Part shown: positions 1,052-24,198 of the stretch, in pieces
Position numbering within the stretch: position 1 is the first letter of the stretch
Layout of the letters: the number at the start of each line of letters is the position of its first letter
Assembly (NCBI GenBank): GCA_964016885.1
Contig: CAXHJY010001056.1
Coordinates: forward strand, 1 to 24,198
Length of the DNA stretch: 24,198 nucleotides
Reading direction: 5' to 3'
Origin: Eledone cirrhosa
Taxonomy: Eukaryota
The notes under the pieces: model-generated
Database searches by the model: none
What the model was told of the DNA's origin: nothing
Seen by the model: the letters and a program-made list of their open reading frames with translations, nothing else
Program-made: the position numbers and the translations under genes

Positions 1052-2008
1052 ATGGACTGCATGCAGGAAAAATGGGAAAAATGTGAAATCAGGAGTCAGC
1101 GAAACTGGTCGAAGATTGAACTAGCGGTTTTGATCAAGGGGTGGACTATGGCTGATGGGTCTCCACCAAGCAAAAAGATGGCGGAGAACCTGAAGAGCCA
1201 TGGGTTTATGAGGACCCTGGTACAGATAAAGAGAAAAGAAATTGAGAAGGCGTATGTCCTCATAGCGCCTCATATGGCGATGCTAAGCCGTGTCCTCAGG
1301 GAGGAGAAAACCGAAGGGAGGGATGAGGAGAAGGAGAGGGAAAAGGAAGAGGAAAAAGAGGGGGAAAAGGAAAAGGAGGAGAGCACAAGCACGGACCTGA
1401 AAGAAAATGATATACCCTCCGCTACAGGCAGGGAGGGCAGGCCGGGCAACCAACAAGCTAAGGGCAAAGGTGAAAAGCGAAATCACCTTCCGAAGGAGAA
1501 CCAAGTGCAGAGGGACCAGTGGACAACTGTTCAAAGAAAGAACAGAAAGCACCGAGACACTGGGAGCAAAAATCCCCAAGTAATGTGCAAGTTTTTCAAG
1601 AACGGGACATGCTGGCATGGAGAGACAGGGATGGGATGCAGATTCGCCCACCCTAGGTCTCGAACGAACTATGCCCATCATACTCGCGCAACATGCCCCA
1701 GCCTAAGCCGAAATAAGCCGCTCCAGAAGTATGCTGATGTCGCGCGTGCTGCACCAACAAGGAGAAGGCACGCTCATGCCGACGAGATACAGATGGCAGC
1801 AGCAGATCAGAAAAATTTTTTAGTGATGGCAGAGAAGATTGTGGGACAGCTGACCTGGCTGCATCGTCTCCAGAGCCAGGGTCATCCACACCAGCACTCG
1901 AGACCACCGCAGTTAAGGGACCCAGAGTGGCCGCCGCTGACACCAGACCAGGTGTCATACCGACAGCCATTACTGGCACCCCAAAAGTCACACCAGTGCT
2001 GCTGCTGA
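1052..2008 (+). CDS. LINE-A ORF1 protein (318 aa): N-terminal Myb/SANT-like domain, E/K-rich linker, CCCH zinc finger
   Basis: First ATG in the 707..2008 frame (MDCMQEKW). RNWSKIELAVLIKGW...GFMRTLVQIKRK resembles a Myb/SANT-like trihelix. CKFFKNGTCWHGETGMGCRFAH = C-x7-C-x8-C-x3-H. The upstream S/L/P-rich part is just the CT tract. Confidence 0.75.
   Translation: MDCMQEKWEKCEIRSQRNWSKIELAVLIKGWTMADGSPPSKKMAENLKSHGFMRTLVQIKRKEIEKAYVLIAPHMAMLSRVLREEKTEGRDEEKEREKEEEKEGEKEKEESTSTDLKENDIPSATGREGRPGNQQAKGKGEKRNHLPKENQVQRDQWTTVQRKNRKHRDTGSKNPQVMCKFFKNGTCWHGETGMGCRFAHPRSRTNYAHHTRATCPSLSRNKPLQKYADVARAAPTRRRHAHADEIQMAAADQKNFLVMAEKIVGQLTWLHRLQSQGHPHQHSRPPQLRDPEWPPLTPDQVSYRQPLLAPQKSHQCCC
1816..1822 (+). 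promoter_or_regulatory. Candidate -1 ribosomal frameshift slippery heptamer T TTT TTA (LINE-A)
   Basis: ORF1 codons AAT TTT TTA GTG (N-F-L-V). The -1 frame is stop-free from 1717 and continuous with ORF2. Confidence 0.6.
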
Positions 2009-4955
2009 ATGTCAGGGGCCTGGTGAAACTCAGCAACATGAGTAAAATTTCCTACCTGGGAGACTTAGCCATAAGCAATCAAGCACTATGCATGGCACTA
2101 ACCGAAACGCACCTGACAAGCAGTATAGCAGATGCAGAAATACATATACCGAAATATACTGTATTTCGTTCGGACAGGAAGGAGAGAACTCATGGTGGGG
2201 TTGCTCTGTATATCCGTGAAGATGTCACACCAATTGTACTGTTGACACATTCAAACTCAGTCTGTGACACACTGATAATACATATGAAGCAACTACAGAC
2301 GGTAATATGTGTCACATATCGGCCGCCCGATGCCCCCAGTCATGAGGGTAAATTTGAGGATAGCCTAAGTAGGATAGAAGAGGTCCTTGACAAACTGGAC
2401 CAGGGTCTCAACATCCTACTGCTGGGAGACTTCAACCTACCAAAGGTCAAATGGCCTGAGGGCCACCTCCTCCCTGGAATGACGTCAATAGAACAGAGAC
2501 AGACGGAATCCCTGCTGGCCCTCACACACAGGCTGTTCATGGAGCAAGCAATACTCCTCCCAACAAGAGGCGAAAATGTCCTGGACCTCTGTTTTACAAA
2601 CAACGAAGTGCTCATCCACAATGTAAAGGTGACACCAACAATTCTCTCGGATCATAACTTGGTAGAGCTAATGATATGTGGTCCAAGAGAACCAACAGAG
2701 ACAAAACCACCAAGAAGCTCCGGGACGCTATCCAGCCTTAACTTCTACGGGGCTGACTGGAAGAAGATTAAGAGTGAAATCCGGAAGCAAACATGGAGTG
2801 CAAACATCGCCACACAAGACACTAACACACAATTTCAACACTTCATGACAACAATACACACCATATGCAAAAAGTGTGTCCCGGAGAAAGAGGCAAACAG
2901 ACACAAAAATCTTATTCCCAGAGATAGGAAAATCCTTATGAGACGTAGAACTAAACTCTCAAACCAGTTGAATAGAGAACAAAACCAAAACAAGAAGGAA
3001 TCCTATTTGAAACGTGCACTACTTGACACCGAGATTGCACTCAAGCTTTCACATGGGAATGAGAGGGCAAGGAAAGAGAACATGGCCATAGAAAACATTA
3101 AAACAAACCCTAAGGCCTTCTTTAAATTTGCAAAAGAAACTGCCTCAGTACACTGCAAGATTGGACCACTCTTCCACACGGACGGTTCATTAACCGAAAA
3201 TCCCCAAGAGATATGTGAAATACTGAACGAACAGTACAAAAGTGTCTTCACATGTCCACTGAGGCACATGCAAATAACGAAGCCAGAGGAGTTCTTTGAT
3301 GCCACAACACTACATCAAGAAATGGCAACCATCAACCACATAGACATAACGGAAGAGGATGTGGTGTACGCCATTGATGAAATTAGAACAGACTCGGCTG
3401 CTGGACCTGATGGATTCCCAGCAGTTCTCCTAAAAATATGTAAGCGGGCCTTAGCAACTCCACTGAAGATGCTCTTCAGAAGCTCCTTGGCTAGCGGTGT
3501 ACTACCCAGGGAGCTGAAAGAAGGCACAATATGCCCTATCCATAAAGGAGGTAGTAGAGCAGAGGCCAAGAACTATAGGCCAGTCTCCCTGACGTCGCAT
3601 ATCAGTAAGGTCATGGAGCGAGTCGTCAGAAAGAAACTAATCACTTTCCTCGAAGAAAATGACTGCCTGACTAGCATGCAACATGGCTTCCGCCCAGGAA
3701 GAAGCTGCCTTACACAGCTGCTACATCACTACGACTGGGTACTGAGACAGCTACTAGACAGCTCACATGTAGACGTGATATATCTTGACTTTGCGAAGGC
3801 CTTTGACAAGGTCGACCACGGAATGATATGTCACAAACTACACGGACTCGGCATACTGGAAAAGTAGGTGAGTGGCTGCATGGCTTCCTGAGGGACAGAA
3901 GCCAGGCAGTCGCAGCAAATGGGGCCCTCTCGAGGGAAACACCGATAACAAGTGGGGTGCCTCAGGGGACAGTCCTGGGACCACTACTGTTTTTGGTGGC
4001 TCTCTCGGACATGCCCTCTGTGGTGCATGCAACAACATCCCTCACTAGCTATGCTGATGACACTAAGGTAGCACAGGCAATCAAAAACCCGGCTGACGCT
4101 GCCCTCTTACAGCAGGATCTGGATGCCATATACAGATGGGCGGAAGAAAACAACATGCAGTTTAATGCTGGCAAATTCCAAGCCCTACAATACAAACCTG
4201 CAAACACAAACACAAATATAGCGGAACACAGCTACACAGGACCAGGAGGGACCGATATCCCCGTGTCAAAATCGATACGAGACCTGGGCATAGACATGAG
4301 CGATGATGCATCTTTTTCTTCACACATCATGAAGGTGGCGACAGCATGTAGACGATTCGCTGGCTGGATCTTGAGGACTTTCCTTACAAGAGATCGAAAC
4401 ACCATGTTGACACTGTGGAGGACTTTTGTCCTAAGCCGCCTGGACTACTGCTCCCAGCTGTGGTCACCCCATAGTGTCAAACTAACCACAGAGCTTGAGG
4501 CAATCCAGCGAAGCTACACCAAGAGGATTGCCAAGATGAGGGAGACAAGCTACTGGGAGAGGCTGAAGGAACTGAACCTCTACTCCTTGGAGCGAAGACG
4601 GGAGAGATACGCAGTGATCTACATGTGGAAAATCCTGGAGGGACTAGCACCAAACTTTGGCATTGGGAGCTGGACCAACCGTCGAACAGGACGTCACTGT
4701 GTGGTGCCAAAGGTCCCGTCTTCCACATCTAGAATAAGGAGCAGGTATTGCAATAGCCTGGGATTCAAGGGCCCTCAACTCTTCAACAGGCTGCCGAGGC
4801 ATCTGCGAGACTTGCATGACGTGGAGGTGGATGTCTTTAAGAAACATCTCGACAGGATCCGGGATGAGCCCACAGCAAGACACGAGGGAAACCTAAGGGC
4901 AGCAGCAACAAACTCCCTCCTACACCAGTGGCCAACCTATACAGGCTGGAGATAA
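1816..4955 (+). CDS. LINE-A ORF2: apurinic-type endonuclease plus reverse transcriptase, with one 1-bp frameshift at ~3855
   Basis: APE motifs LLNVRGL, ALTETHL, YRPP, LLGDFN, LDL, SDH; RT motifs [32 protein letters not shown]. ORFs 1927..3867 and 3828..4955 join if one A is restored (GGC ATA [A]CT GGA AAA GTA = G-I-T-G-K-V). Confidence 0.92.
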
Positions 4956-5021
4956 AATGTGTAGCAACAAGGGCGGTGCCCCAGCATGGCCTCAGCCGGA
5001 TGGCTGAAACAGGTAAAAGAG

Positions 5022-5128
5022 TATACATATATATATATATATACATATACACATATATACACATATATACACATATATACATATATATACACATATATAC
5101 ATATATATACACATATATACATATATAT

Positions 5129-5175
<47 letters not shown>

Positions 5176-5272
5176 CATATACATATATATATATACATAT
5201 ACATATATATATATACATATACATATATATATATATATACATATACATATACATATATATATATACATATAC

Positions 5273-5327
<55 letters not shown>

Positions 5328-5334
5328 CATATAC

Positions 5335-5389
<55 letters not shown>

Positions 5390-5398
5390 CATATACAT

Positions 5399-5433
<35 letters not shown>

Positions 5434-5686
5434 TATATACATATATATATATACATATATATATACATATATATATATACATATACATATACATATATAC
5501 ATATACATATATATATACATATATATATATACATATACATATATATATACATATATATATATACATATACATATATATATACATATATATATACATATAT
5601 ATATATACATATACATATATATATATACATATACATATATATATATATACATATATATATATACATATACATATATATATATATAC

Positions 5687-5721
<35 letters not shown>

Positions 5722-6012
5722 CATATACATACATATACATATATATATATACATATACATATATATATACATATATATATATACATATACATATACATAT
5801 ATACATATACATATATATACATATATATATATACATATACATATATATATACATATATATATATACATATACATATATATATACATATACATATACATAT
5901 ACATATATATATATACATATATATACATATATATATATACATATACATATATATATATACATACATATATATATATACATATACATATATATATATACAT
6001 ATATACATATAC

Positions 6013-6046
<34 letters not shown>

Positions 6047-6112
6047 ATATATATAAGTTTCTTTATACATATATATATATATATACACATATATATATAT
6101 ACATATATATAC

Positions 6113-6207
<95 letters not shown>

Positions 6208-6370
6208 CATATATACATATATATACATATATATATATACATATATATACATATATATATATATACACATATATATACACATATATATATATACATATAT
6301 ATACACATATATATATATATACATATATACATATATATACATATATATACACATATATATACATATATAC

Positions 6371-6401
<31 letters not shown>

Positions 6402-6608
6402 CATATATATATATACATATATACATATATATATACATATACATATATATACATATACATATATATACATATACATATATATATATATACATATACATAT
6501 ATATACATATATATACATATACATACATATACATATGTATATATATACATATACATATATATACATATACATATATATACACATATATATACATATACAT
6601 ATATATAC

Positions 6609-6639
<31 letters not shown>

Positions 6640-6642
6640 TAT

Positions 6643-6673
<31 letters not shown>

Positions 6674-6704
6674 TACATATATATATACATATATATATAT
6701 ATAC

Positions 6705-6737
<33 letters not shown>

Positions 6738-6738
6738 C

Positions 6739-6797
<59 letters not shown>

Positions 6798-6815
6798 CAT
6801 ATATATATACATATA

Positions 6816-6847
<32 letters not shown>

Positions 6848-6914
6848 CATATATATATACATATATATATACATATATATATACATATATATATACATAT
6901 ATATATATATATAC

Positions 6915-6945
<31 letters not shown>

Positions 6946-7050
6946 CATATATATATACACATATATATATACATATATATATATATATACATATATATAT
7001 ACATATATACATATATATATACATATATATATATATACATATATATATAC

Positions 7051-7081
<31 letters not shown>

Positions 7082-7082
7082 C

Positions 7083-7133
<51 letters not shown>

Positions 7134-7134
7134 C

Positions 7135-7165
<31 letters not shown>

Positions 7166-7190
7166 CATATATATATACATATATATATAC

Positions 7191-7221
<31 letters not shown>

Positions 7222-7294
7222 CATATATATATACATATATATATACATATATATATATATATACATATATATATACATATATATATATATATAC

Positions 7295-7325
<31 letters not shown>

Positions 7326-7326
7326 C

Positions 7327-7377
<51 letters not shown>

Positions 7378-7378
7378 C

Positions 7379-7451
<73 letters not shown>

Positions 7452-7676
7452 TATATACATATGCACATATATATATACATATATATATACATATATATAT
7501 ATACATATATATATACATATATATATACATATATATATACATATATATATACATATATATATACATATATATATACACATATATATATACATATATATAT
7601 ACATATATATATACATATATATATACATATATATATACATATATATATACATATATATATATACATATATATATAC

Positions 7677-7735
<59 letters not shown>

Positions 7736-7751
7736 CATATATATAATATAC

Positions 7752-7800
<49 letters not shown>

Positions 7801-7832
7801 CATATATATACATATACATATATATAATATAC

Positions 7833-7867
<35 letters not shown>

Positions 7868-8104
7868 CATATATATATACATATATATACATATACATAT
7901 ATATACATATACATATATATACATATATATATATACATATATATACATATATATATATACATATATATATATACATATATATATATACATATATATATAT
8001 ACATATATATATATACATATATATATATACATATACATATATATATATATACATATATATATATACATATATATATATATACATATATATATATACATAT
8101 ACAC

Positions 8105-8135
<31 letters not shown>

Positions 8136-8258
8136 CATATACATATATATATATATACATATATATATATACATATACATATATATATATATACATATAT
8201 ATATATACATATACATATACATATATATATACATATATATATATACATATACATATAC

Positions 8259-8290
<32 letters not shown>
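5022..8290. repeat. Compound (TA)n(CA) microsatellite array, ~3.3 kb
   Basis: TA runs punctuated by CA on the + strand; a 9-nt non-repeat interruption at 6056-6064. Confidence 0.98.
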
Positions 8291-8292
<2 letters not shown>

Positions 8293-8897
8293 TGTTATAT
8301 TTGGGGAGGGTCATATTTGCGTAATATTGCCAGAATTAATAACAGAACACACTCACTGTTTGGTTGGTTTTCGCTTCTCGCTGTCTTTTATATATATATA
8401 TCTGCGATCTAACTTACTCGGTCCTCAATGTTGCCATTGACTGACCGGCGGTCAAAAATAATACAGATACAATATAGACAAACACATATATATATAGTTT
8501 ACATAAATCTTTCGTTGCACATCTGCAACATCGTCAGTGGTGTTATATTCATTGTTCCTCCTGTTGTGTTGTATGTCTACGCCATTTTTTTGTTCAGTCA
8601 ATGGCGTAGACATACAACACAACAGGAGGAACAATGAATATAACACCACTGACGATGTTGCAGATGTGCAACGAAAGATTTATGTAAACTATATATATAT
8701 GTGTTTGTCTATATTGTATCTGTATTATTTTTGACCGCCGGTCAGTCAATGGCAACATTGAGGACCGAGTAAGTTAGATCGCAGATATATATATATAAAA
8801 GACAGCGAGAAGCGAAAACCAACCAAACAGTGAGTGTGTTCTGTTATTAATTCTGGCAATATTACGCAAATATGAGCCTCCCCAAATATAACAATAT
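8289..8897. repeat. Long near-perfect palindrome: 298-bp arms (8289-8586 / 8600-8897), 13-nt loop
   Basis: Paired positions sum to 17186 at both ends, so no net indel; one mismatch seen (G8310/G8876); loop tttttgttcagtc. Confidence 0.95.
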
Positions 8898-8938
8898 CTG
8901 TTTCGACACACGATTTCATATAAAAAACCTCGCAAAAC

Positions 8939-10957
<2,019 letters not shown>

Positions 10958-11233
10958 ATACTTAACTAAAACACACACACACGAACTTGTGAGTACATTT
11001 TCCTTTAACTACAAATTATTATTATATACTTTCGTCTTTTCATTAACTTAATTAATTTCAAATAACCAGAATATACATATATATATATATATATACTCAT
11101 ATTTATATATATACGCTTCTCACTCACACACAAGAAAAACAAAAAACAAAAATAAATCAAAAATAAATTAAAAAAAAAAAAATATATATATATTGAAATA
11201 CTTAACTAAAACACACACACACTCAAAACTAGA

Positions 11234-12424
11234 ATGGCTAACCAGCAAAAATCCAAACAGAACTGGTCTGATAATGAAATCGACATTCTAATAAACACAT
11301 GGCATTGCCTTTCCCAAACAGAAAATATAGATGCTTCATCTCTGAACGACATTGCTAAACGTACAGTTCAATTTTTGAAAACTCGATCTGAACAACAGAT
11401 TCAAAATAAATTAAAGCAAATCGAAATTGCTTTTAAATTAATCAATAAACATTTGGATAAACTACGGTGTGTTTTCTCTTCGAATGCTGTCCAGCAGCAG
11501 CAACAACAACAACAGCAGCTACAACAGCAACAACAACAACAACAGCAGCTACAACAGCAACAACAACAACAGCTACAACAACAACATCAACAACAGCTAC
11601 AACAACAACATCAACAACAGCAACAACAACAGTGTGAACCACTCCTTGATTCATCAACAATGGCCGATCTACTAAATGAAACTATTGACCCCCCAGTAGC
11701 CTCTGTCTCACAGCATGAAACGCCACATCCTTTCTCTGGCCCAGCAGTCCAATCATCACCACTGCCAACATCTCTGCCTACTACTACTACTACTACTACA
11801 ACATTTTTGTCTACTGCTATGTCAAGGAATTTACCTTCTAATACCAGAACAAGAACTCTCCCTCCCACAGTCCACAAAGGTCGTCAAATCCTACCCAAAC
11901 CATCATCTACACCTCTCACAACACCCACACCCATATACCCACCCACTCGAAACCCCATCATTTGCCGCTACTCTCTACGCTATAGAATATGTACGGATAG
12001 TGGCTGCAAATTCACCCATTTACCTAGGACAAAACGATCTATCCCCACAAACAGCCACCACCATAATACATACTCTAATTTAACACCAACACAACCACCA
12101 ATAACTCAAACAAGGAATCCACAAATCTGCCGTTTTTCCCTGCGAGACAGATTGTGTTTAGACCGGGATTGTCCCTTTACCCATCTCCCGGGGACCCGTC
12201 GGATAAATGAAAATAAAATTAAAAATAAAAGCAAAAACAAAAACCATAACCTACATAAAAATAACCACTACCACAGTCACCAACAGTCTTCTAAACAGGA
12301 AACTTCTTCCTCTTTTTTAGCCATAATGAATCTGGCAAAAGAACTGGAAAAAAACATTCGAGCTATCACCCAGCACCACCCTCCACTATCACCCCACTGC
12401 ACAAACTCCCATTGCTGCCATTAA
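11234..12424 (+). CDS. LINE-B ORF1 protein (396 aa): Myb/SANT-like N-terminus, polyQ and P/T/S linker, two CCCH zinc fingers
   Basis: QNWSDNEIDILINTW...RSEQQIQNKLKQI; CRYSLRYRICTDSGCKFTH and CRFSLRDRLCLDRDCPFTH (both C-x8-C-x4-C-x3-H). Confidence 0.82.
   Translation: MANQQKSKQNWSDNEIDILINTWHCLSQTENIDASSLNDIAKRTVQFLKTRSEQQIQNKLKQIEIAFKLINKHLDKLRCVFSSNAVQQQQQQQQQLQQQQQQQQQLQQQQQQQLQQQHQQQLQQQHQQQQQQQCEPLLDSSTMADLLNETIDPPVASVSQHETPHPFSGPAVQSSPLPTSLPTTTTTTTTFLSTAMSRNLPSNTRTRTLPPTVHKGRQILPKPSSTPLTTPTPIYPPTRNPIICRYSLRYRICTDSGCKFTHLPRTKRSIPTNSHHHNTYSNLTPTQPPITQTRNPQICRFSLRDRLCLDRDCPFTHLPGTRRINENKIKNKSKNKNHNLHKNNHYHSHQQSSKQETSSSFLAIMNLAKELEKNIRAITQHHPPLSPHCTNSHCCH
11492..11632 (+). repeat. (CAA/CAG)n repeat encoding polyglutamine within ORF1
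   Basis: cagcagcagcaacaacaa... in the ORF1 frame. Confidence 0.9.
12313..12319 (+). promoter_or_regulatory. Candidate -1 ribosomal frameshift slippery heptamer T TTT TTA (LINE-B)
   Basis: ORF1 codons TCT TTT TTA GCC (S-F-L-A). The -1 frame opens after TAA at 12292-12294 and runs without a stop into ORF2. Confidence 0.62.
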
Positions 12425-15400
12425 CAAACAAACAAATTAACAACACACCAAAACAATTAAAACCATCCACTCTCGCCTCTACATTTTTGCTTAACGCCCA
12501 AGGCATCAGCCCTTCCACCAATACTCAAAAATGGAAGATCAAATTCCTGGAGGACTGGATTGATGTCCATCCAAACCACATCCCTTTCTTCGTCCTCACT
12601 GAAACCCATCTCAGTAACCTCCACTTGGAAGCCGAGGTGAAAGTGAAAAATTTCAAAGCCATCCGTGCTGATCGCGCTGGCAGAAGAAAGGGCGGAACTG
12701 CCATTTATGTCCATAATTCTTTCTCAACAGAGGCTATGAACATATTCACTAATGGATACTGTGAGGCAGTCACTGTATTCAGTCAAACCAACAACCTATT
12801 AGTAGTTGGGCTCTATAGGCCACCCCAAACGCCTGTACCATGCTTCAAGGAATGCCTCAACAGCATAAAGTGTTTCATCCAAGAGTGTCACCCTGACAAC
12901 ATCTTAATGATGGGGGACTTCAACCTCCCCGGAGTTGACTGGTCCACAAACACCCTGCCACCAGGTTCTTCTGCCTCAACCTCTGACAGGGAAGCTGTGG
13001 AATCGCTTCTTGACTTCATGGATGATTTCTTCCTATCCCAACTAGTGCTCGAACCAACGAGGTGCCACAAAAACGTCCTAGACTTAATTTTCAGCAATCA
13101 CACTGACAATATCCACAATATTGCAGTGGAGAAAACTCTACTCTCTGATCATGACATGGTTCTCTGTGATCTGAGATTCCACCGTCCAATATACAAACCC
13201 AATGTCATTTCTCCTGTCCATCCGTTTGACGCTATGGATTTCCACAATGCAAACTGGAAGCGATCAGTCATGATCTTGCACATGTCGACTGGTCCTTCAC
13301 GCACACTCATACACCCACTAACATCAAAAAGTCCTGGCAGACATTTGTGGACACTGTTACAAACATATGTGCTAAACACACCCCATTAAGAACTATAAAC
13401 AAATCTAAGAGCAGAATCCCTAGAAATAGAAAAACGCTCATCAGAAAAATTAAGAGAACGAACAAAAAAATCAACAATCTGAAATACTGTCAGCAGCAAC
13501 ACATCAACTTGACTGCCATTTCATCACTAGAGATTAAAAAACATAACCTCCAAAACAACATAATGTCCCTCATCAACAATCAGAGAAGAGCTGAAGAGGC
13601 CTGGGCCATTGAGAAGATCAAACTCAATCCCAAAGTGTTCTTTTCATTTGCAAAAAAACACAAAATCACTGGCTCTACTGTTGGCCCTCTAATTGATGAA
13701 AATGGCACTCTTCAAGACAATGCTAAAACTATGGGTGAGATACTGCAGAAACAATACTGCTCTGTTTTCAGCAATCCTGATATGGCCGATCTGGGCTGTA
13801 TCGGCGATGTTACTCCCCATTACACCTTATCGGACATAACGTTTGGCGCCCCTGATGTCTTGGCGGCAATAAAGGAAATCAAGCATAATTCAGCAGTAGG
13901 TCCCGATAGGTTCCCTGCTTGTGTCTTGAAGGCGTGTCAACACCAACTTGCTTCTCCTCTTGCCAATCTGTGGCGGAACTCACTGGATGCTGGATATGTG
14001 CCAGAAAACCTTCTATCCCAGTCTGTTGTCCCAGTTTTCAAAAAGGGAAACAAATCCCTTGCCGTGAATTACCGTCCAATCTCACTCACCTCTCATATCA
14101 TTAAGGTATTTGAGCGAGTGGTGAGATCGCGAATGACCCACTTCCTTGAGAGTAACAATATGCTGAACTCCAACCAGCATGGATTCCGTAATGGAAGGGA
14201 TTGCCTGACGCAACTACTGCATCACTTTGATGACATTTTGAGAGCCTTGGGAGAGGGTTCCAACACTGATGTTATCTACCTTGATTTCAGCAAGGCCTTT
14301 GACAGGGTTGATCATAACATTCTACTGAGAAAGCTGTCCAATATTGGTGTCACTGGAAAGCTGCTGCAGTGGATCAAGAGCTTCCTGTCAAACAGAACCC
14401 AACATGTTGTAGTTGAGGGAGTCAAATCAAGCCCAGCCAAAGTCAGTAGTGGAGTCCCACAAGGCACTGTGTTGGGCCCACTTCTCTTCATCATCTATAT
14501 TAATGACATCACTGACATCATCAAACACAGCAACATTAAAATTTTCGCTGATGATTCCAAGCTCCAAAAGGTCATCAATGGCGTGGATGACCGGATAAGC
14601 CTTCAGTCAGACCTACTGGCTGTTACCCAATGGGCAGAAAAGAACAACATGTTACTGAACGAAGACAAATTCGAACTGATCCACTTTGGAAAAGAGGATG
14701 CTCTGAAACTCCCGTACTCCCTTCCCTCCGGGGAAACTCTCGTGGCATCTAACAACATCAGAGACTTGGGAGTAACCGTGGACAGCAACATAAGCTGGAC
14801 CACGCATATAAGCAGCAAAGTTGACATGGCCCGCAGAATGTGTTCCTGGATCCTCAGAACCTTCCAGTCGAGAGATTCCCGCACCATTATCCTTCTCTTC
14901 TCTACTTTCGCCCGACCACACCTTGAATACTGTTGTCCACTGTGGTCTCCCCACACGAAACAAAGTATCATGAAACTTGAAGCTCCTCAAAGGGCAATCA
15001 CGAAAAAGATAGATGGCATGTCAGACCTTGACTACTGGGGTCGATTGGAAAACCTGAAACTTTACTCACTCCAACGTCGCCGTGAGCGTTATATTATCTG
15101 CATGATGTGGAAAATGTTCCATCATCACTGCCCAAATGATGTTGGCATCGCCTTCAAGATACACCCAAGGCTTGGGCCCCGTGCTATCCGTCCCATTCAA
15201 AAATCTAAATCGCAACTCATAACAACAATACGGCACAATTATTTCACCTCAATCGGCCCTGCTCTCTTCAACATCACACCAGGACACGTCAAAACAGAAA
15301 CTGACCACACAAAATTCAAGAAGTCTTTGGACAAATTCCTCCAAGTAATCCCGGACAAACCACCCACACCCGGATATGTCTCCGCAAACAGTAATTCTCT

Positions 15401-15431
15401 TCTCGAATGGGCCATGGTGCCCAAATTCTGA
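12313..15431 (+). CDS. LINE-B ORF2: APE endonuclease plus reverse transcriptase, with one 1-bp frameshift at ~13256
   Basis: FLLNAQG, VLTETHL, YRPP, MGDFN, LDL, SDH; [32 protein letters not shown]. ORFs 12412..13389 and 13347..15431 join if one G is restored (AAC TGG [G]AA GCG ATC = N-W-E-A-I). Confidence 0.92.
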
Positions 15432-15506
15432 ATTGAAAGACTTCGCCAGGTGGTGCTATTAAGTTAGACATGGCCTGGGCCAATACTGGCCAAAACATTT
15501 CAAAGT

Positions 15507-15567
15507 TATATATATATACATACATATACATATATACATACATACATATATATACATACATATATAC

Positions 15568-15633
<66 letters not shown>

Positions 15634-15652
15634 ACATATATATACATACATA

Positions 15653-15693
<41 letters not shown>

Positions 15694-15744
15694 ACATACA
15701 TATATATACATATATATATATACATACATATATATATATACATA

Positions 15745-15799
<55 letters not shown>

Positions 15800-15909
15800 A
15801 CATATATATATATACATACATACATATATATACATATATACATATATATACATATATACATATATATACATATATATACATATATACATATATATATATA
15901 CATACATAC

Positions 15910-15958
<49 letters not shown>

Positions 15959-17035
15959 CATACATATATATATATACATACATATATATATATACATACA
16001 TATATATATATACATACATATATATATATACATATATATATATACATACATATATATATATACATATATATATATACATACATATATATATATACATACA
16101 TATATATATATACATACATATATATATATATACATACATATATATATACATATATATATATACATATATATATATACATATATATATATACATATATATA
16201 TATACATATATATATATACATATATATACATATATATATATATACATATATATACATATATATACATATACATACATATATATACATATATATACATATA
16301 CATACATATATATACATATATATACATATATATACATATATATACATATATATACATATATATATATATACATATATATACATATATATATATACATATA
16401 TATACATATATATATACATATATATATACATATATATATACATATATATACATATATATATATACATATATATATATATACATATATATACATATATATA
16501 TATATACATATATATACATATATATATATATATACATATATATACATATATATATATATACATATATATACATATATATATATATACATATATATACATA
16601 TATATATATATACATATATATACATATATATATATATACATATATATACATATATATATATATACATATATATACATATATATATATATACATATATATA
16701 TACATATATATGTATATATATATACATATATACATATATATGTATATATATATACATATATACATATATATGTATATATATATACATATATAGGTATATA
16801 TATATACATATATATGTATATATATATACATATATACGTATATATATATATATATATACGTATATATATATACATATATACGTATATATATATACATATA
16901 TACGTATATATATATACATATATACGTATATATATACATATATACGTATATATATATACATATATACGTATATATATATATATATATACATATACGTATA
17001 TATATATATATACATATACGTATATATATATACAT
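15507..17035. repeat. Compound (TA)n(CA) microsatellite array with TACA, TATG and TACG variant patches
   Basis: Direct reading; CG-containing units are confined to ~16837-17020. Confidence 0.98.
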
Positions 17036-18609
17036 AAGGCATCTGGGTCTGTAGGTCACACTATAACCACACGTATCGTTAACCAGGTAATACTAGAGGG
17101 GGCCATACCAAAAGATTGGTGCAGTAGCATCATTGTCAACTTCTACAAAGGTAAAGGCGATGCACTAGATAGAGGAAACTATAGAGGTATAAAGTTGATG
17201 GACCAGGTCATGAAAGTAACAGAAAGAGTTATAGCACAGCTGATTAGGGACCGGGTGAATATAGACGAGATGCAATTTGGGTTTGTACCAGGAAAAGGCA
17301 CCACTGATGCGCTCTTCCTTGTGAGGCAATTACAGGAAAAGTACCTAGCTAAAAGTAAGCCACTCTACTTGGCATTGTCGACCTTGAGAAAGCCTTTGAC
17401 AGAGTTCCACGTGCAGTAATCTGGTGGGCTCTTAGAAAACTAGGAGTAGATGAATGGCTTGTGAAAGCGGTACAAGCCATGTATAGGGGAGCAGTCAGCA
17501 AAGTTAGGATTGGCAATGAGTATAGCGAGGAATTTAGCGTACAGGTTGGGGTCCACCAGGGCTCTGTTCTTAGCCCTCTCCTGTTCATCATAGTCCTGCA
17601 GGCAATAACGGAGGAGTTTAAGACCGGATGCCCATGGGAACTCCTGTATGCTGATGACCTCGCACTCATAGCTGAATCTATGGTAGAACTAGAGAATAAA
17701 TTCCAAACCTGGAAGCAGGGACTAGAGAGAAAGGGCCTCAAAGTCAACATGACAAAGACTAAGGTCCTTATAAGTAGACGAGAAAACAGAACCCAGATCC
17801 CCTCAGGGAAATGGCCTTGCTCAGTATGTAGGAAAGGTGTAGGTAGGAACTCCATTCTTTGCCCCAAATGCAAACAATGGGTACACAAGAGATGTAGCGG
17901 GATCTCAGGAAGCTTAATTAAGAATGTAGGATTCACATGCAGCAGCTGTGCTGAAACAGCAAGCAAACAGCCAAAGGAAACAAGTACCACCAATCTCTGG
18001 GAGGGCCCTGTAGAAACAGTAGACAGCTTCTGCTACCTAGGTGACCGAATTAGCAACGGAGGTGGGTGCTCAGAAAGTACAATAACTAGGGTAAGAACGG
18101 GATGGAAGAAGTTTAGGGAACTACTACCACTGCTAGCTGCAAAAGGCTTCTCCCTCAGAATGAAAGGCAGACTGTATGATGCGTGTATCCGAACAGCGAT
18201 GTTGCATGGTAGTGAGACCTGGGCGCTGAAGGTGGAAGACTTACGTAGATTAGAGAGAAACGAAGCCTGCATGCTCCGATGGATGTGTAACAGTAATATA
18301 CGTGAACGACAAAGCATAAAGGAATTGAGAGAGAGACTGAGCATAAGAGGAATCAAATGCTGCGTGCAGGAGAGGCGGTTACGCTGGTATGGACATGTGA
18401 TGCGTATGAAGGATGACAGCTGCATAAAAAGGTGCAGAGCACTAGAAGTTGATGGAAACCGCGGAGTGGGGAGACCCAAGATGACTTGGGATGAGGTGAT
18501 AAAAGCCGACCTTACCCAACTACACCTCTCAAAGTCAATGACACACGACCGTGACTTCTGGCGTCACGCAGTAATACAGGGTACCCGACCTCCCATGGGT
18601 ACATGCTGA
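17036..18609 (+). pseudogene. Truncated RTE reverse transcriptase with a 1-bp deletion at ~17375
   Basis: Starts mid-ORF (KASGSVGH). ggcattgtcgac versus ggcatttgtcgac in copy 2 breaks [10 protein letters not shown]. Confidence 0.88.
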
Positions 18610-18910
18610 AGCATATAAACAATATGCCCCCCCCCCACCGCAAGGTGGTCGTGGAGGTGCCACGGCAAAAAAGCACCCAGCCCACACTGTAAAGTGGACG
18701 TGTAGGCGCCACGAAAAAGCACCCAGCACTCACTGTAAATGAGGTTGGTGTTAGGAAGGGCATCCAGCTGTAGAAATCAAGCCAGATCAGTTCCTGTATG
18801 AGCAAGGCATGGTCAGCCGACCAGACACTGCCCACAACAGGACAACCCGTCTAACCCATGCTAGCGTGGAAGAACGGACGTAAAACGGTGATGATGATGA
18901 TGATGATGAT
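17036..18910 (+). mobile_element. RTE-clade LINE, copy 1, 5'-truncated, with (GAT)n tail
   Basis: RT with [36 protein letters not shown]; ~300-nt 3' UTR ending GGACGTAAAACGGT(GAT)n. Confidence 0.93.
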
Positions 18911-19296
18911 ACGTATATATATACATATATATATATATACATATACATATATATACATATATATGTATATATATATATATATGTATATATATATGTATAT
19001 ATATATACATATATATACATATATATATACATATATATACATATATATAATACATATATATACATATATATATATACATATATATATATACATATATATA
19101 CATATATACATATATATATACATATATAACATATATATATATATATACATATATACATATATATATACATATATACATATATATATATATATACATATAT
19201 ACATATATATATATACATATATATATACATATATACATATATATATATACATATATATATACATATATACATATATATATATACATATATATATAC

Positions 19297-19393
<97 letters not shown>

Positions 19394-19394
19394 C

Positions 19395-19427
<33 letters not shown>

Positions 19428-19746
19428 CATATATATATACATATATATATACATATATATATACATATATATATACATATATATATACATATATATATAC
19501 ATATATATATATATACATATATATATACATATATATATATACATATATATATACATATATATATATACATATATATATACATATATATATATACATATAT
19601 ATATATATAAACATATATATATATAAACATATATATATACATATATATATACATATATATATACATATATATATATATACATATATATATACATATACAT
19701 ATATATATAAACATATATAAACATATATATATATAAACATATATAT
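18911..19746. repeat. Compound (TA)n(CA) microsatellite, TAAACA variant at its right end
   Basis: Direct reading. Confidence 0.97.
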
Positions 19747-19880
19747 GTAGATAAATCTACCAAGAGTTTACGGTAGTGTCCAATCCGTATGAAGAACTCA
19801 ATGTATTCCGGATATCATGGAAAGAAGAAATGTAATGAAAAATCACTTTCGGTGAAAGATAAACGGTATACAGAGTCAAG

Positions 19881-20101
19881 ATAAAATATTAAACAAATAA
19901 TGAATAAACAATTCCTTATATTAAACAAAAAAAGTTCATTATTTAATGATAGTTTGTATAATTTTGTATAATTTTGTACATAGATCTGTTGAATATGCAT
20001 GCCACTCTAACACATATATATCCTAGAAACGATCGTTAAATAATGAACTTTTTTTGTTTAATATAAGGAATTGTTTATTCATTATTTGTTTAATATTTTA
20101 T
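19881..20101. repeat. 66-bp perfect inverted repeats (19881-19946 / 20036-20101) around an 89-nt spacer; MITE/foldback-like
   Basis: ataaaatattaaacaaataatgaataaacaattccttatattaaacaaaaaaagttcattatttaa and its exact reverse complement; imperfect pairing extends ~12 bp further inward. Confidence 0.9.
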
Positions 20102-20528
20102 AAACATATATATATATATAAACATATATATATAAACATATATATATAAACATATATATATATAAACATATATATATATAAACATATATATATATAAACA
20201 TATATATATATAAACATATATATATATAAACATATATATATATAAACATATATATATATAAACATATACATATATATATACATATATATATATAAACATA
20301 TATATATATATACATATATATATACATATATATATATATACATATATATATATACATATATATATACATATATATATATATACATATATATATACATATA
20401 TATATACATATATATATATATATACATATATATACTTATATATATATACATATATGTATATATATATACATATATGTATATATATATACATATGTATATA
20501 TATATACATATATATATATACATATATG

Positions 20529-20573
<45 letters not shown>

Positions 20574-20574
20574 G

Positions 20575-20640
<66 letters not shown>

Positions 20641-20702
20641 CATATATGTATATATATATATACATATGTATATATATATACATATATATATATACATATA
20701 TG

Positions 20703-20748
<46 letters not shown>

Positions 20749-20756
20749 CATATATG

Positions 20757-20801
<45 letters not shown>

Positions 20802-20802
20802 G

Positions 20803-20850
<48 letters not shown>

Positions 20851-20930
20851 CATATATATATATACATATATGTATATATATATACATATACATATATATA
20901 TATACATATATGTATATATATATATATATG

Positions 20931-20976
<46 letters not shown>

Positions 20977-20978
20977 CA

Positions 20979-21022
<44 letters not shown>

Positions 21023-21125
21023 TGTATATATATATACATATATATATATATACATATATATATATACATATATGTATATATATATACATATATATATATA
21101 TATACATATATGTATATATATATAC

Positions 21126-21156
<31 letters not shown>

Positions 21157-21164
21157 CATATATG

Positions 21165-21196
<32 letters not shown>

Positions 21197-21204
21197 CATA
21201 TATG

Positions 21205-21236
<32 letters not shown>

Positions 21237-21275
21237 CATATATGTATATATATATACATATGTATATATATATAC

Positions 21276-21310
<35 letters not shown>

Positions 21311-21355
21311 CATATATACATATATATATACATATATATATATATACATATTTAT

Positions 21356-21389
<34 letters not shown>

Positions 21390-21479
21390 ATATATTTATA
21401 CATATATGTATATATATATACATATATATATATATATACATATATGTATATATATATACATATATGTATATATATATAC

Positions 21480-21514
<35 letters not shown>

Positions 21515-21561
21515 CATATATACATATATATATACATATATATATATATATACATATTTAT

Positions 21562-21595
<34 letters not shown>

Positions 21596-21605
21596 ATATA
21601 TTTAT

Positions 21606-21639
<34 letters not shown>

Positions 21640-21658
21640 ATATATATACATATATGTA

Positions 21659-21690
<32 letters not shown>

Positions 21691-21691
21691 C

Positions 21692-21740
<49 letters not shown>

Positions 21741-21890
21741 CATATATATATATACATATATGTATATATATACATATATATATATATATACATATATGTA
21801 TATATATATACATATATATATACATATATACATATATGTATATATATATACATATATATATACATATATATATATATACATATATATACA

Positions 21891-21930
<40 letters not shown>

Positions 21931-21935
21931 TGTAT
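20102..21935. repeat. Compound (TA)n(CA) microsatellite with TAAACA and CATATATG variant patches
   Basis: Direct reading. Confidence 0.97.
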
Positions 21936-22275
21936 ATTCATTCATTTCATTTTTACGTCTGCTTTTTCCCTGCTTCCAAGGGTGGGACGGGAACTGATTC
22001 TGGCTTGATTTCTACAGCTGGATGCCCTTCCTAACACCAACCTCATTTACAGTGAGTGCTGGGTGCTTTTTTGCCGTGGCACCTCCACGACCACTTTGCA
22101 GTGGAATGGTAGGGACCCCAGTCCCTATCATCTCATTTCTACAGCTGAGTAAACTGGAGCAATCTGAAATAAAGTGTCTTGCTCAAGGAAACAACACATC
22201 ACCCGTTCTGAGAATTGAACTCACAACCTTTCAATTGCAAGCCCAATGCTCTAACCAGTAAGCCATGTGCCTCCA
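21936..22275 (-). mobile_element. tRNA-derived SINE (~340 bp) with an RTE-derived 3' part and (AATG)n tail
   Basis: Minus strand: A-box-like TGGCTTACTGG (22255-22265), B-box-like GTTCAATTC (22212-22220), central CCTTGAGCAAGACACT motif (22173-22188), a segment (21990-22104) nearly identical to the RTE 3' UTR, and tail CAGACGTAAAAATGAAATGAATGAAT. Confidence 0.85.
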
Positions 22276-22280
22276 TATAT

Positions 22281-24198
22281 ATCATCATCACCGTTTTACG
22301 TCCGTTCTTCCACGCTAGCATGGGTTAGACGGGTTGTCCTGTTGTGGGCAGTGTCTGGTCGGCTGACCATGCCTTGCTCATACAGGAACTGATCTGGCTT
22401 GATTTCTACAGCTGGATGCCCTTCCTAACACCAACCTCATTTACAGTGAGTGCTGGGTACTTTTTCGTGGCGCCTACACGTCCACTTTACAGTGTAGGCT
22501 GGGTGCTTTTTTGCCGTGGCACCTCCACGGCCACCTTGCGGTGGAGGGGGGGGGGGGGCATATTGTTTATATGCTTCAGCATGTACCCATGGGAGGTCGG
22601 GTACCCTGTATTACTGCGTGACGCCAGAAGTCACGGTCGTGTGTCATTGACTTTGAGAGGTGTAGTTGGGTAAGGTCGGCTTTTATCACCTCATCCCAAG
22701 TCATCTTGGGTCTCCCCACTCCGCGGTTTCCATCAACTTCTAGTGCTCTGCACCTTTTTATGCAGCTGTCATCCTTCATACGCATCACATGTCCATACCA
22801 GCGTAACCGCCTCTCCTGCACGCAGCATTTGATTCCTCTTATGCTCAGTCTCTCTCTCAATTCCTTTATGCTTTGTCGTTCACGTATATTACTGTTACAC
22901 ATCCATCGGAGCATGCAGGCTTCGTTTCTCTCTAATCTACGTAAGTCTTCCACCTTCAGCGCCCAGGTCTCACTACCATGCAACATCGCTGTTCGGATAC
23001 ACGCATCATACAGTCTGCCTTTCATTCTGAGGGAGAAGCCTTTTGCAGCTAGCAGTGGTAGTAGTTCCCTAAACTTCTTCCATCCCGTTCTTACCCTAGT
23101 TATTGTACTTTCTGAGCACCCACCTCCGTTGCTAATTCGGTCACCTAGGTAGCAGAAGCTGTCTACTGTTTCTACAGGGCCCTCCCAGAGATTGGTGGTA
23201 CTTGTTTCCTGTGGCTGTTTGCTTGCTGTTTCAGCACAGCTGCTGCATGTGAATCCTACATTCTTAATTAAGCTTCCTGAGATCCCGCTACATCTCTTGT
23301 GTACCCATTGTTTGCATTTGGGGCAGAGAATGGAGTTTCTACCTACACCTTTCCTACATACTGAGCAAGGCCATTTCCCTGAGGGGATCTGGGTTCTGTT
23401 TTCTCGTCTACTTACAAGGACCTTAGTCTTTGTCATGTTGACTTTGAGGCCCTTTCTCTCTAGTCCCTGCTTCCAGGTTTGGAATTTATTCTCTAGTTCT
23501 ACCATAGATTCAGCTATGAGTGCGAGGTCATCAGCATACAGGAGTTCCCATGGGCATCCGGTCTTAAACTCCTCTGTTATTGCCTGCAGGACTATGATGA
23601 ACAGGAGAGGGCTAAGAACAGAGCCCTGGTGGACCCCAACCTGTACGCTAAATTCCTCGCTATACTCATTGCCAATCCTAACTTTGCTGACTGCTCCCCT
23701 ATACATGGCTTGTACCGCTTTCACAAGCCATTCATCTACTCCTAGTTTTCTAAGAGCCCACCAGATTACTGCACGTGGAACTCTGTCAAAGGCTTTCTCA
23801 AGGTCGACAAATGCCAAGTAGAGTGGCTTACTTTTAGCTAGGTACTTTTCCTGTAATTGCCTCACAAGGAAGAGGGCATCAGTGGTGCCTTTCCCTGGTA
23901 CAAACCCAAATTGCATCTCGTCTATATTCACCCGGTCCCTAATCAGCTGTGCTATAACTCTTTCTGTTACTTTCATGACCTGGTCCATCAACTTTATACC
24001 TCTATAGTTTCCTCTATCTAGTGCATCGCCTTTACCTTTGTAGCAGTTGACAATGATGCTACTGCACCAATCTTTTGGTATGGCCCCCTCTAGTATTACC
24101 TGGTTAACGATACGTGTGGTTATAGTGTGACCTACAGACCCAGATGCCTTCAGCATCTCGGCAGCTATACCCGATGGACCGGTTGCCTTCCCTATCTT
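22281..24198 (-). mobile_element. RTE-clade LINE, copy 2, continuing beyond the window edge
   Basis: Reverse complement of copy 1 over 22281-24150 with about a dozen differences; short (GAT)n tail at 22281-22290. Confidence 0.94.
22576..24198 (-). CDS. RTE reverse transcriptase (partial, uninterrupted) containing a PHD finger
   Basis: The frame is open to the window edge (KIGKATGPSGIAAEMLK...), so the ATG at 24156 is internal; [14 protein letters not shown] and FCYLG are present. Confidence 0.92.
   Translation of the reverse strand, partial: KIGKATGPSGIAAEMLKASGSVGHTITTRIVNQVILEGAIPKDWCSSIIVNCYKGKGDALDRGNYRGIKLMDQVMKVTERVIAQLIRDRVNIDEMQFGFVPGKGTTDALFLVRQLQEKYLAKSKPLYLAFVDLEKAFDRVPRAVIWWALRKLGVDEWLVKAVQAMYRGAVSKVRIGNEYSEEFSVQVGVHQGSVLSPLLFIIVLQAITEEFKTGCPWELLYADDLALIAESMVELENKFQTWKQGLERKGLKVNMTKTKVLVSRRENRTQIPSGKWPCSVCRKGVGRNSILCPKCKQWVHKRCSGISGSLIKNVGFTCSSCAETASKQPQETSTTNLWEGPVETVDSFCYLGDRISNGGGCSESTITRVRTGWKKFRELLPLLAAKGFSLRMKGRLYDACIRTAMLHGSETWALKVEDLRRLERNEACMLRWMCNSNIRERQSIKELRERLSIRGIKCCVQERRLRWYGHVMRMKDDSCIKRCRALEVDGNRGVGRPKMTWDEVIKADLTQLHLSKSMTHDRDFWRHAVIQGTRPPMGTC

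Follow-up and report, generated by a model that had tools for sequence, protein, structure and literature searches.

A slippery heptamer conserved at the junction of the two reading frames in a clade of retrotransposons: a probable signal for -1 ribosomal frameshifting

Introduction

How the second open reading frame (ORF2) of long interspersed nuclear elements (LINEs) is translated is a long-standing question, and the working models, L1 and SART1, rely on reinitiation or on coupling through UAAUG (PMC2881922), giving a separate ORF2 protein. We describe here two LINEs, LINE-A and LINE-B, in a stretch of 24,198 nucleotides (nt) from Eledone cirrhosa (assembly GCA_964016885.1, contig CAXHJY010001056.1, positions 1 to 24,198, forward strand; hereafter the window). 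In both, ORF2 overlaps the end of ORF1 in the -1 frame, and the overlap contains a slippery heptamer, U_UUU_UUA, whose conservation among relatives suggests programmed -1 frameshifting.

U_UUU_UUA is the shift site of gag-pol in human immunodeficiency virus 1 (HIV-1) and of 6K/TF in alphaviruses (PMC2569925). In Semliki Forest virus 10-17% shifting is reported on this heptamer, with no compact structure found in the work described there (PMC2569925). Sites starting with G_GA or G_UU are tolerated slippery variants (PMC3542737, PMC5009743).

Among LINEs whose endonuclease is of the apurinic/apyrimidinic type (APE), TRE5-A and TRE3-A of Dictyostelium are stated in a review to need a -1 frameshift for ORF2 (PMC5911963); the available part of PMC5006619 adds nothing further on TRE frameshifting. 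In the accessible sections of a 2016 review of frameshifting, HeT-A and TART are the sole elements named that lack long terminal repeats (non-LTR) (PMC5009743). A full-text literature search, with most subscription papers outside its scope, returned no proposal of slippery-site frameshifting for animal CR1-type LINEs; older descriptions of CR1 may suggest it.

Results and discussion

LINE-B has the organisation of an APE-type LINE, with ORF1 followed by an ORF2 for endonuclease and reverse transcriptase (Pfam PF14529, PF03372 and PF00078), and its copies are dispersed. The features on which the argument turns are as follows.

11234 to 12424, plus strand: LINE-B ORF1, 396 amino acids (aa); stop-to-stop frame 11210 to 12424
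12292 to 12294, plus strand: TAA closing the -1 (ORF2) frame upstream, with seven further stops back to 12208
12295 to 15431, plus strand: LINE-B ORF2, for APE endonuclease and reverse transcriptase; this copy has it split into 12295 to 13389 and 13230 to 15431
12313 to 12319, plus strand: heptamer U_UUU_UUA in the ORF1 phase, where the -1 shift is predicted; the next base, 12320, is G
12319 to 12474, plus strand: Pro/Ser/Thr-rich linker of about 52 codons in the ORF2 frame, from shift site to endonuclease, overlapping ORF1 to 12424
12320 to 12336, plus strand: weak 4-bp hairpin with zero spacer, unsupported as a stimulator
12349 to 12355, plus strand: second canonical heptamer, A_AAA_AAC, in the ORF1 phase
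12412 to 12417, plus strand: TTG CTG in weak context, candidate alternative starts in the ORF2 frame that precede the ORF1 stop by 10 and 7 nt

A preliminary description of the window had read TCT TTT TTA G at 12311-12320 in the ORF1 phase, and the junction is as it stated, the heptamer proper occupying 12313-12319. Opening after the TAA at 12292-12294, 18 nt ahead of the heptamer, the -1 frame shares 130 nt with ORF1 and continues into the endonuclease; the three additional stops reported ahead of this TAA proved to be seven, within 90 nt upstream. The absence of an ATG until deep in the endonuclease was also borne out. The first in the ORF2 frame lies at 12736 (aa 148), beyond the endonuclease motif LLNAQG at 12487, and a start there would remove the N-terminal Asn motif of the enzyme. 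In Zorro3, mutation of the conserved N-terminal endonuclease Asn (N17A) cut transposition to <5% (PMC1965478), and N17 would be the same residue as the Asn motif upstream of ATG 12736.

As ORF2 is broken in both window copies, copies were examined genome-wide. ORF2 of LINE-B is a single 1045-codon open frame in many of them, and the junction was identical in 30/30 of the best copies fetched. Exact-pattern counts in the genome gave 576 copies with six T, five with seven and four with five. The slippery site is thus not a mutation of this copy, and a copy-specific indel creating the overlap was rejected on both counts. The five copies with an extra T (L236-L240), in which the two frames are merged, and the four that are one T short look like homopolymer noise.

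Relatives were collected by an endonuclease alignment search, which gave 171 confirmed metagenome stretches, the best 80 of which were used. In a quick tree, 25 of these 80 and four families from this genome formed 29 rows on one side of a branch (Shimodaira-Hasegawa approximate likelihood ratio test, SH-aLRT, 99). Removal of one stretch without the junction (L121) and of six near-identical duplicates left 22 families, four from this genome and 18 from metagenome contigs. They include 10 deep lineages with endonucleases 29-60% identical (median 35%). The genome families are LINE-A, LINE-B, the sister family of LINE-B (L063) and family C (L093). We take the clade to be CR1-like from its general features and the PHD finger in ORF1, in a tree without named CR1 reference elements.

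LINE-A has the same heptamer as LINE-B, as had been claimed, and the following features.

1052 to 2008, plus strand: LINE-A ORF1
1738 to 4955, plus strand: LINE-A ORF2 in the -1 frame, broken in this copy near 3807-3867
1813 to 1822, plus strand: LINE-A slippery site, in which A_AAU_UUU (1813-1819) overlaps U_UUU_UUA (1816-1822), followed by G

In other copies ORF2 of LINE-A is a 1076-codon open frame. The endonucleases of LINE-A and LINE-B are 29% identical and one stretch of the reverse transcriptases 38%. Their ORF1s are barely alignable, as first described, with two short matching stretches only (best expectation value, E, 1e-5).

Conservation of the heptamer

At each junction the site was taken as the earliest in-phase TTT lying next to a further T once the -1 frame has opened; in L063 it is the second of two, 6 nt further on. 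The aligned Phe codon of ORF1 falls inside a slippery heptamer in 22/22 families, namely U_UUU_UUA in 12, G_GAU_UUU in eight and G_UUU_UUA in two, so that 12/22 sites are strictly canonical. Resampling synonymous codons for the same peptides, and accepting the broad slippery class, would be expected to give 2.6 of the 22 families and 0.87 of the 10 deep lineages. The codon-shuffled comparison proposed in the preliminary description therefore stands at 22 observed against 2.6 expected, and the non-slippery Phe-Leu codons in relatives that would have spoken against a recoding signal did not appear, TTT being used for the aligned Phe throughout. In an alignment of proteins only, the Phe occupied a single column for 23/23 ORF1s under four MAFFT modes, a check that is not wholly blind since its input was trimmed to at most 230 residues upstream of the Phe.

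Codon usage elsewhere in the same elements is different: TTT provides 316 of 774 Phe codons (TTC 458) and only 2 of 93 Phe-Leu pairs are written TTT TTA. Among 7182 codon positions further upstream in ORF1, just one is occupied by any of the three heptamers. Not one of 20 invariant endonuclease residues has a single codon across the 22 families, synonymous sites being saturated, and so common ancestry alone does not fix codons. The heptamer at the junction is conserved beyond the need for its amino acids, and more than chance would give.

A change of register within the clade bears on the cause. All eight families with CTN or CGG after the Phe form one subclade (SH-aLRT 98, quick tree), and all eight have G GAT before it. 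The UUA half of the site has been lost there and a G_GA-type site gained one codon upstream. Phe-Leu is mostly kept in the subclade, and in the one family where Leu has become Arg the heptamer is retained. The swap of heptamer and register with Phe-Leu mostly kept points to selection on slippage and not on the peptide. It would be predicted under selection on slippage of transfer RNA (tRNA), and would not be expected under peptide constraint, splicing or slippage of RNA polymerase.

The reading frames agree with this. In 22/22 families the -1 frame contains no stop between the site and the end of ORF1, a stretch of 26-177 codons (expected, 2.0/22), whereas the +1 frame has 3-9 stops over the same stretch in each. 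Upstream of the site the -1 frame contains 279 stops in 3579 codons (7.8%), and in 14/22 families its opening is no more than 18 nt from the Phe codon. The linker between site and endonuclease is Pro/Ser/Thr-rich, with 44-190 residues, and in 21/22 families no ATG lies between the site and the endonuclease start. Among database ORF2 calls, 66/92 begin inside the endonuclease.

One protein from MetaClust (P0011) runs from ORF1 through an N-F-L helix into the endonuclease as a single chain, and its endonuclease matches a Mnemiopsis protein (P0014). Known as a protein sequence, it may come from an element that naturally has one ORF, or else be a gene model bridging a frameshift.

Proposed mechanism

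We take the heptamer to be a conserved recoding signal, very probably for a -1 programmed ribosomal frameshift leading to a Gag-Pol-like ORF1-ORF2 fusion. The clade-wide signal suggested in the preliminary description was found in all 22 families, in three variants rather than as a single heptamer; frameshifting is what we infer from it. Most ribosomes would complete ORF1, and a fraction would slip back one base on U_UUU_UUA into the ORF2 frame. Tandem slippage would have the Phe and Leu tRNAs re-pair on UUU UUU or, in the one subclade, those on GAU and UUU re-pair on GGA UUU. The product would be a chain of ORF1, linker, endonuclease and reverse transcriptase, about 1,400 aa in an intact LINE-B (362 + 1037 aa), with the junction S-F-L/F-S-H-N. 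A low slip efficiency would suit a need for much ORF1 protein and little polymerase.

ORF1 of LINE-B consists of a Myb/SANT-like N-terminus, a poly-Q tract, two CCCH-type fingers and a C-terminal helix starting at the slippery site. The N-terminal match (Pfam PF13837, E 0.0026) is weaker than the curated cut-off, and the fingers were assigned by reading the sequence. A structure model was made of ORF1 of family C, which is 92-99% identical to Octopus vulgaris proteins. In this model (mean predicted local distance difference test, pLDDT, 54) there is a single long helix (377-421, pLDDT about 50-70) with the Phe, residue 380, at its beginning, and N-terminal of the helix are a disordered linker and well-predicted zinc fingers. 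Because the last long helix of ORF1 begins at the site, the fusion is predicted from the model to retain the fingers and lose the helix. Our guess is that this helix oligomerises. As ORF2 has no protease, the fusion may remain uncut.

A_AAA_AAC at 12349-12355, which the preliminary description had overlooked, was considered as the main shift site and rejected. The sister family L063 has G_AAA_AAC at this position, and since the heptamer is lost there its presence in LINE-B is probably incidental.

Evidence against frameshifting, and RNA structure

Several points weigh against frameshifting or temper the case for it. The register swap is one evolutionary event. The relaxed heptamers G_GAU_UUU and G_UUU_UUA were accepted post hoc, after the data had been seen, and multiplied probabilities overstate independence because the families are related by descent. 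One ORF1 protein (P0146), known from its amino acids, has E-F-T at the site, and the linker of L140 contains two ATGs. Nor was a local 3' structure found: folding at 12 offsets in the 22 families, with pseudoknots not modelled, gave a mean z of about 0 throughout, with z < -2 in 1/22 families at 0-6 nt and 2/22 at 9 nt. When the 30 nt that follow the site were tested for long-range pairing in 10 families, with 8 shuffles each, no clear signal emerged, L140 being marginally below its best shuffle among the 10 families tested.

The clade thus does not show the RNA structure 5-9 nt downstream that is looked for in a structured stimulator. In LINE-B the hairpin at 12320-12336 noted in the preliminary description does exist; it has no spacer, and the region 12320-12400 folds no better than shuffles (z 0.18), as is also true of the LINE-A window. 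A strong hairpin is present in one family (L143:705-790), starting about 4 nt after U_UUU_UUA, with z about -4. Because Semliki Forest virus shifts with no compact structure found, the missing stimulator is not fatal to a -1 frameshift. As no shared RNA structure was found, any stimulator would be a protein, the nascent chain or a stretch of sequence that does not fold.

Other explanations

The chief alternative, which we regard as improbable, brings two more points against frameshifting. TTTTTTAG also has the shape of a 3' splice acceptor, which the preliminary description did not mention, and with a phase-2 donor in ORF1 splicing there would put ORF1 in frame with ORF2. An acceptor would need G after TTA, and this G is present in 10/14 U-rich families against a background of 24% (p 2e-4 if independent). 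The second point is that two O. vulgaris gene models, CAI9731129.1 (P0141) and CAI9714779.1 (P0156), one of them named 'fission process 1', carry ORF1 of family C on into ORF2 as though an intron, about 146 nt long and with its end at TTTTTTAG, had been removed (apparent intron, L093:1150-1296); gene finders, however, also invent introns at frameshifts. In LINE-B the AG of TTTTTTAG is preceded by a long pyrimidine tract. Across the clade, AG directly after the heptamer codons is missing in 12/22 families, the phase of the first AG varies, and no donor is conserved among the families, the best phase-2 donor in LINE-B being 847 nt upstream. G_GAU_UUU is left unexplained. Patterns for spliced copies, in which foreign sequence abuts the AG, matched none for LINE-B (576 unspliced), for family C (37 unspliced) or for LINE-A (without a matched count); they are blind to donors with T at -3 or -4, although the family C donor would be caught. 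This argument assumes that ORF2 protein copies its own RNA. Such cis preference holds for L1 and is an assumption for CR1.

Independent initiation of ORF2 near the ORF1 stop, with the heptamer incidental, is very unlikely. It is the textbook model for LINE ORF2, by termination-reinitiation as proposed for L1 and SART1 (PMC2881922), and the preliminary description had pointed to TTG/CTG at 12412-12417 as possible near-cognate starts; TTG, CTG or GTG does lie 4-10 nt before the ORF1 stop in LINE-B, L063 and LINE-A. This is not a feature of the clade, since only 7/22 families have a near-cognate codon 15 nt or less from the ORF1 stop and 0/22 have UAAUG/AUGA or UGGGA. Nor would reinitiation account for the fixation of codons or for the run of 26-177 codons without a stop that precedes the end of ORF1.

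RNA polymerase might instead slip on the T run and add one U, so that some transcripts carry a fused frame, and both the T6 run and the five T7 copies that join the frames would fit. We give this less credence still: T7 and T5 copies are equally rare beside T6, T7 copies should dominate if ORF2 protein copies its own RNA, and eight families have just T4, in G_GAU_UUU. That the motif merely reflects a conserved x-F-L at the start of a predicted ORF1 helix, together with base composition, is equally hard to credit and largely refuted, for the peptide leaves codons free where TTC is preferred, TTT TTA is rare for Phe-Leu and synonymous sites are saturated, and ORF2 would still have no start.

Wider occurrence

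Frameshifting may be the general, ancestral mode of polymerase expression in CR1-group LINEs, with a slippery site, no structured stimulator and a helix swapped for enzymes, a tentative idea on which we are almost evenly divided and lean slightly to the negative. When 60 more distant loci were screened, 14 could be scored with a long upstream ORF in -1 overlap, and 12/14 hold an in-phase heptamer (10/12 after collapsing three copies of one element). The heptamers are A_AAA_AAC in eight (three being those copies), G_GAA_AAC in two, U_UUA_AAC in one and G_GAU_UUU in one (L163, L179, L181, L193-L196 and L200; L162 and L192; L168; L185), and L159 and L198 have none. This set was scored without a null model and includes some long overlaps, and is best taken as a lead. 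Other distant loci have a +1 or 0 arrangement, some of which may be broken copies. The A_AAA_AAC loci share a K-N-L motif, and in L179, L193, L196 and L200 the heptamer lies 30-36 nt after the -1 frame opens.

More than 2,000 ORF2 clusters match at E 1e-100 or better, which indicates the breadth of the wider group, and clusters related to the clade bear names from ctenophores and cod. The best matches of the metagenome loci to named proteins had 31-60% identity. A search of genome contigs gave five loci, all distant; of 69 pattern matches in viral contigs, none was confirmed. A PHD finger, together with tandem CCCH fingers, is present in most ORF1s of the clade. Two families, L140 (L140:3-3077) and L142 (L142:3-2750), have unusually long ORF1s of >900 codons, with two PHD fingers in L142.

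Other features of the window and genome

The window elements have the Myb/SANT-like N-terminus (LINE-A, 1052-1300; LINE-B, 11234-11480; E 1e-5 to each other) where relatives have PHD. The two are far apart on the endonuclease tree, and both ORF1s end in C-C-x-stop. Exchange of ORF1 or convergence within the host is possible. A search for an additional family in this genome recovered only LINE-A copies again. The reverse transcriptase of LINE-B is 63% identical to an Argonauta protein, which together with the O. vulgaris matches of family C ORF1 makes an octopod host likely.

All LINEs of the window are embedded in very long (TA)n/(TACA)n arrays (4960-11000, 15500-17050 and 18850-22000). TA repeats also adjoin 5'-truncated copies elsewhere, which hints at microsatellite targeting. 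A near-identical inverted pair of another LINE, presumably RTE-like, occupies 17050-18609 (plus strand) and 22576-24198 (minus strand), and its ORF2 includes a PHD finger beyond the reverse transcriptase domain.

Comparison with known systems

If frameshifting is confirmed, a large clade of animal LINEs makes a retrovirus-like fusion, its annotated protein changes, and the ratio of ORF1 to ORF2 protein is set by slippage. The AUG-less ORF2 calls would be accounted for, as would gene models that possibly bridge the site with an invented intron, and the clade would offer naturally occurring variants in which the shift seems to proceed with no 3' structure.

The nearest likeness is to HIV-1 and the alphaviruses, with which the clade shares the heptamer, its phase and a zero-frame Phe-Leu; as in gag-pol, an RNA-binding protein is followed by a polymerase in the -1 frame. 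It differs from these viral sites in that the host is a non-LTR retrotransposon and that no stem-loop or pseudoknot was detected in 21/22 families. The G_GA start of G_GAU_UUU, in 8/22 families, is found likewise in dianthoviruses, umbraviruses and insect flaviviruses (PMC5009743, PMC3542737). Dianthoviruses and umbraviruses are described there as using local and long-range structures, whereas none was found in the LINE clade.

Among LINEs, TRE5-A and TRE3-A belong to amoebae and to a different lineage, have a zinc finger at the C-terminus, and the review passage on them names no slippery site or test (PMC5911963). CR1-lineage LINEs of the Jockey superfamily likewise combine ORF1 with APE and reverse transcriptase, and the PHD finger in ORF1 recurs in several relatives here (PMC4120745). 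The tandem CCCH fingers of the clade are absent from the ORF1 types listed in the text available of that paper, where frameshift, overlap and CCCH have no occurrences. With L1 and SART1 the clade shares a bicistronic LINE RNA in which ORF2 depends on translation of ORF1 (PMC2881922). There a separate ORF2 protein is made; here stop-start coupling is seen in 0/22 families and a fusion is predicted.

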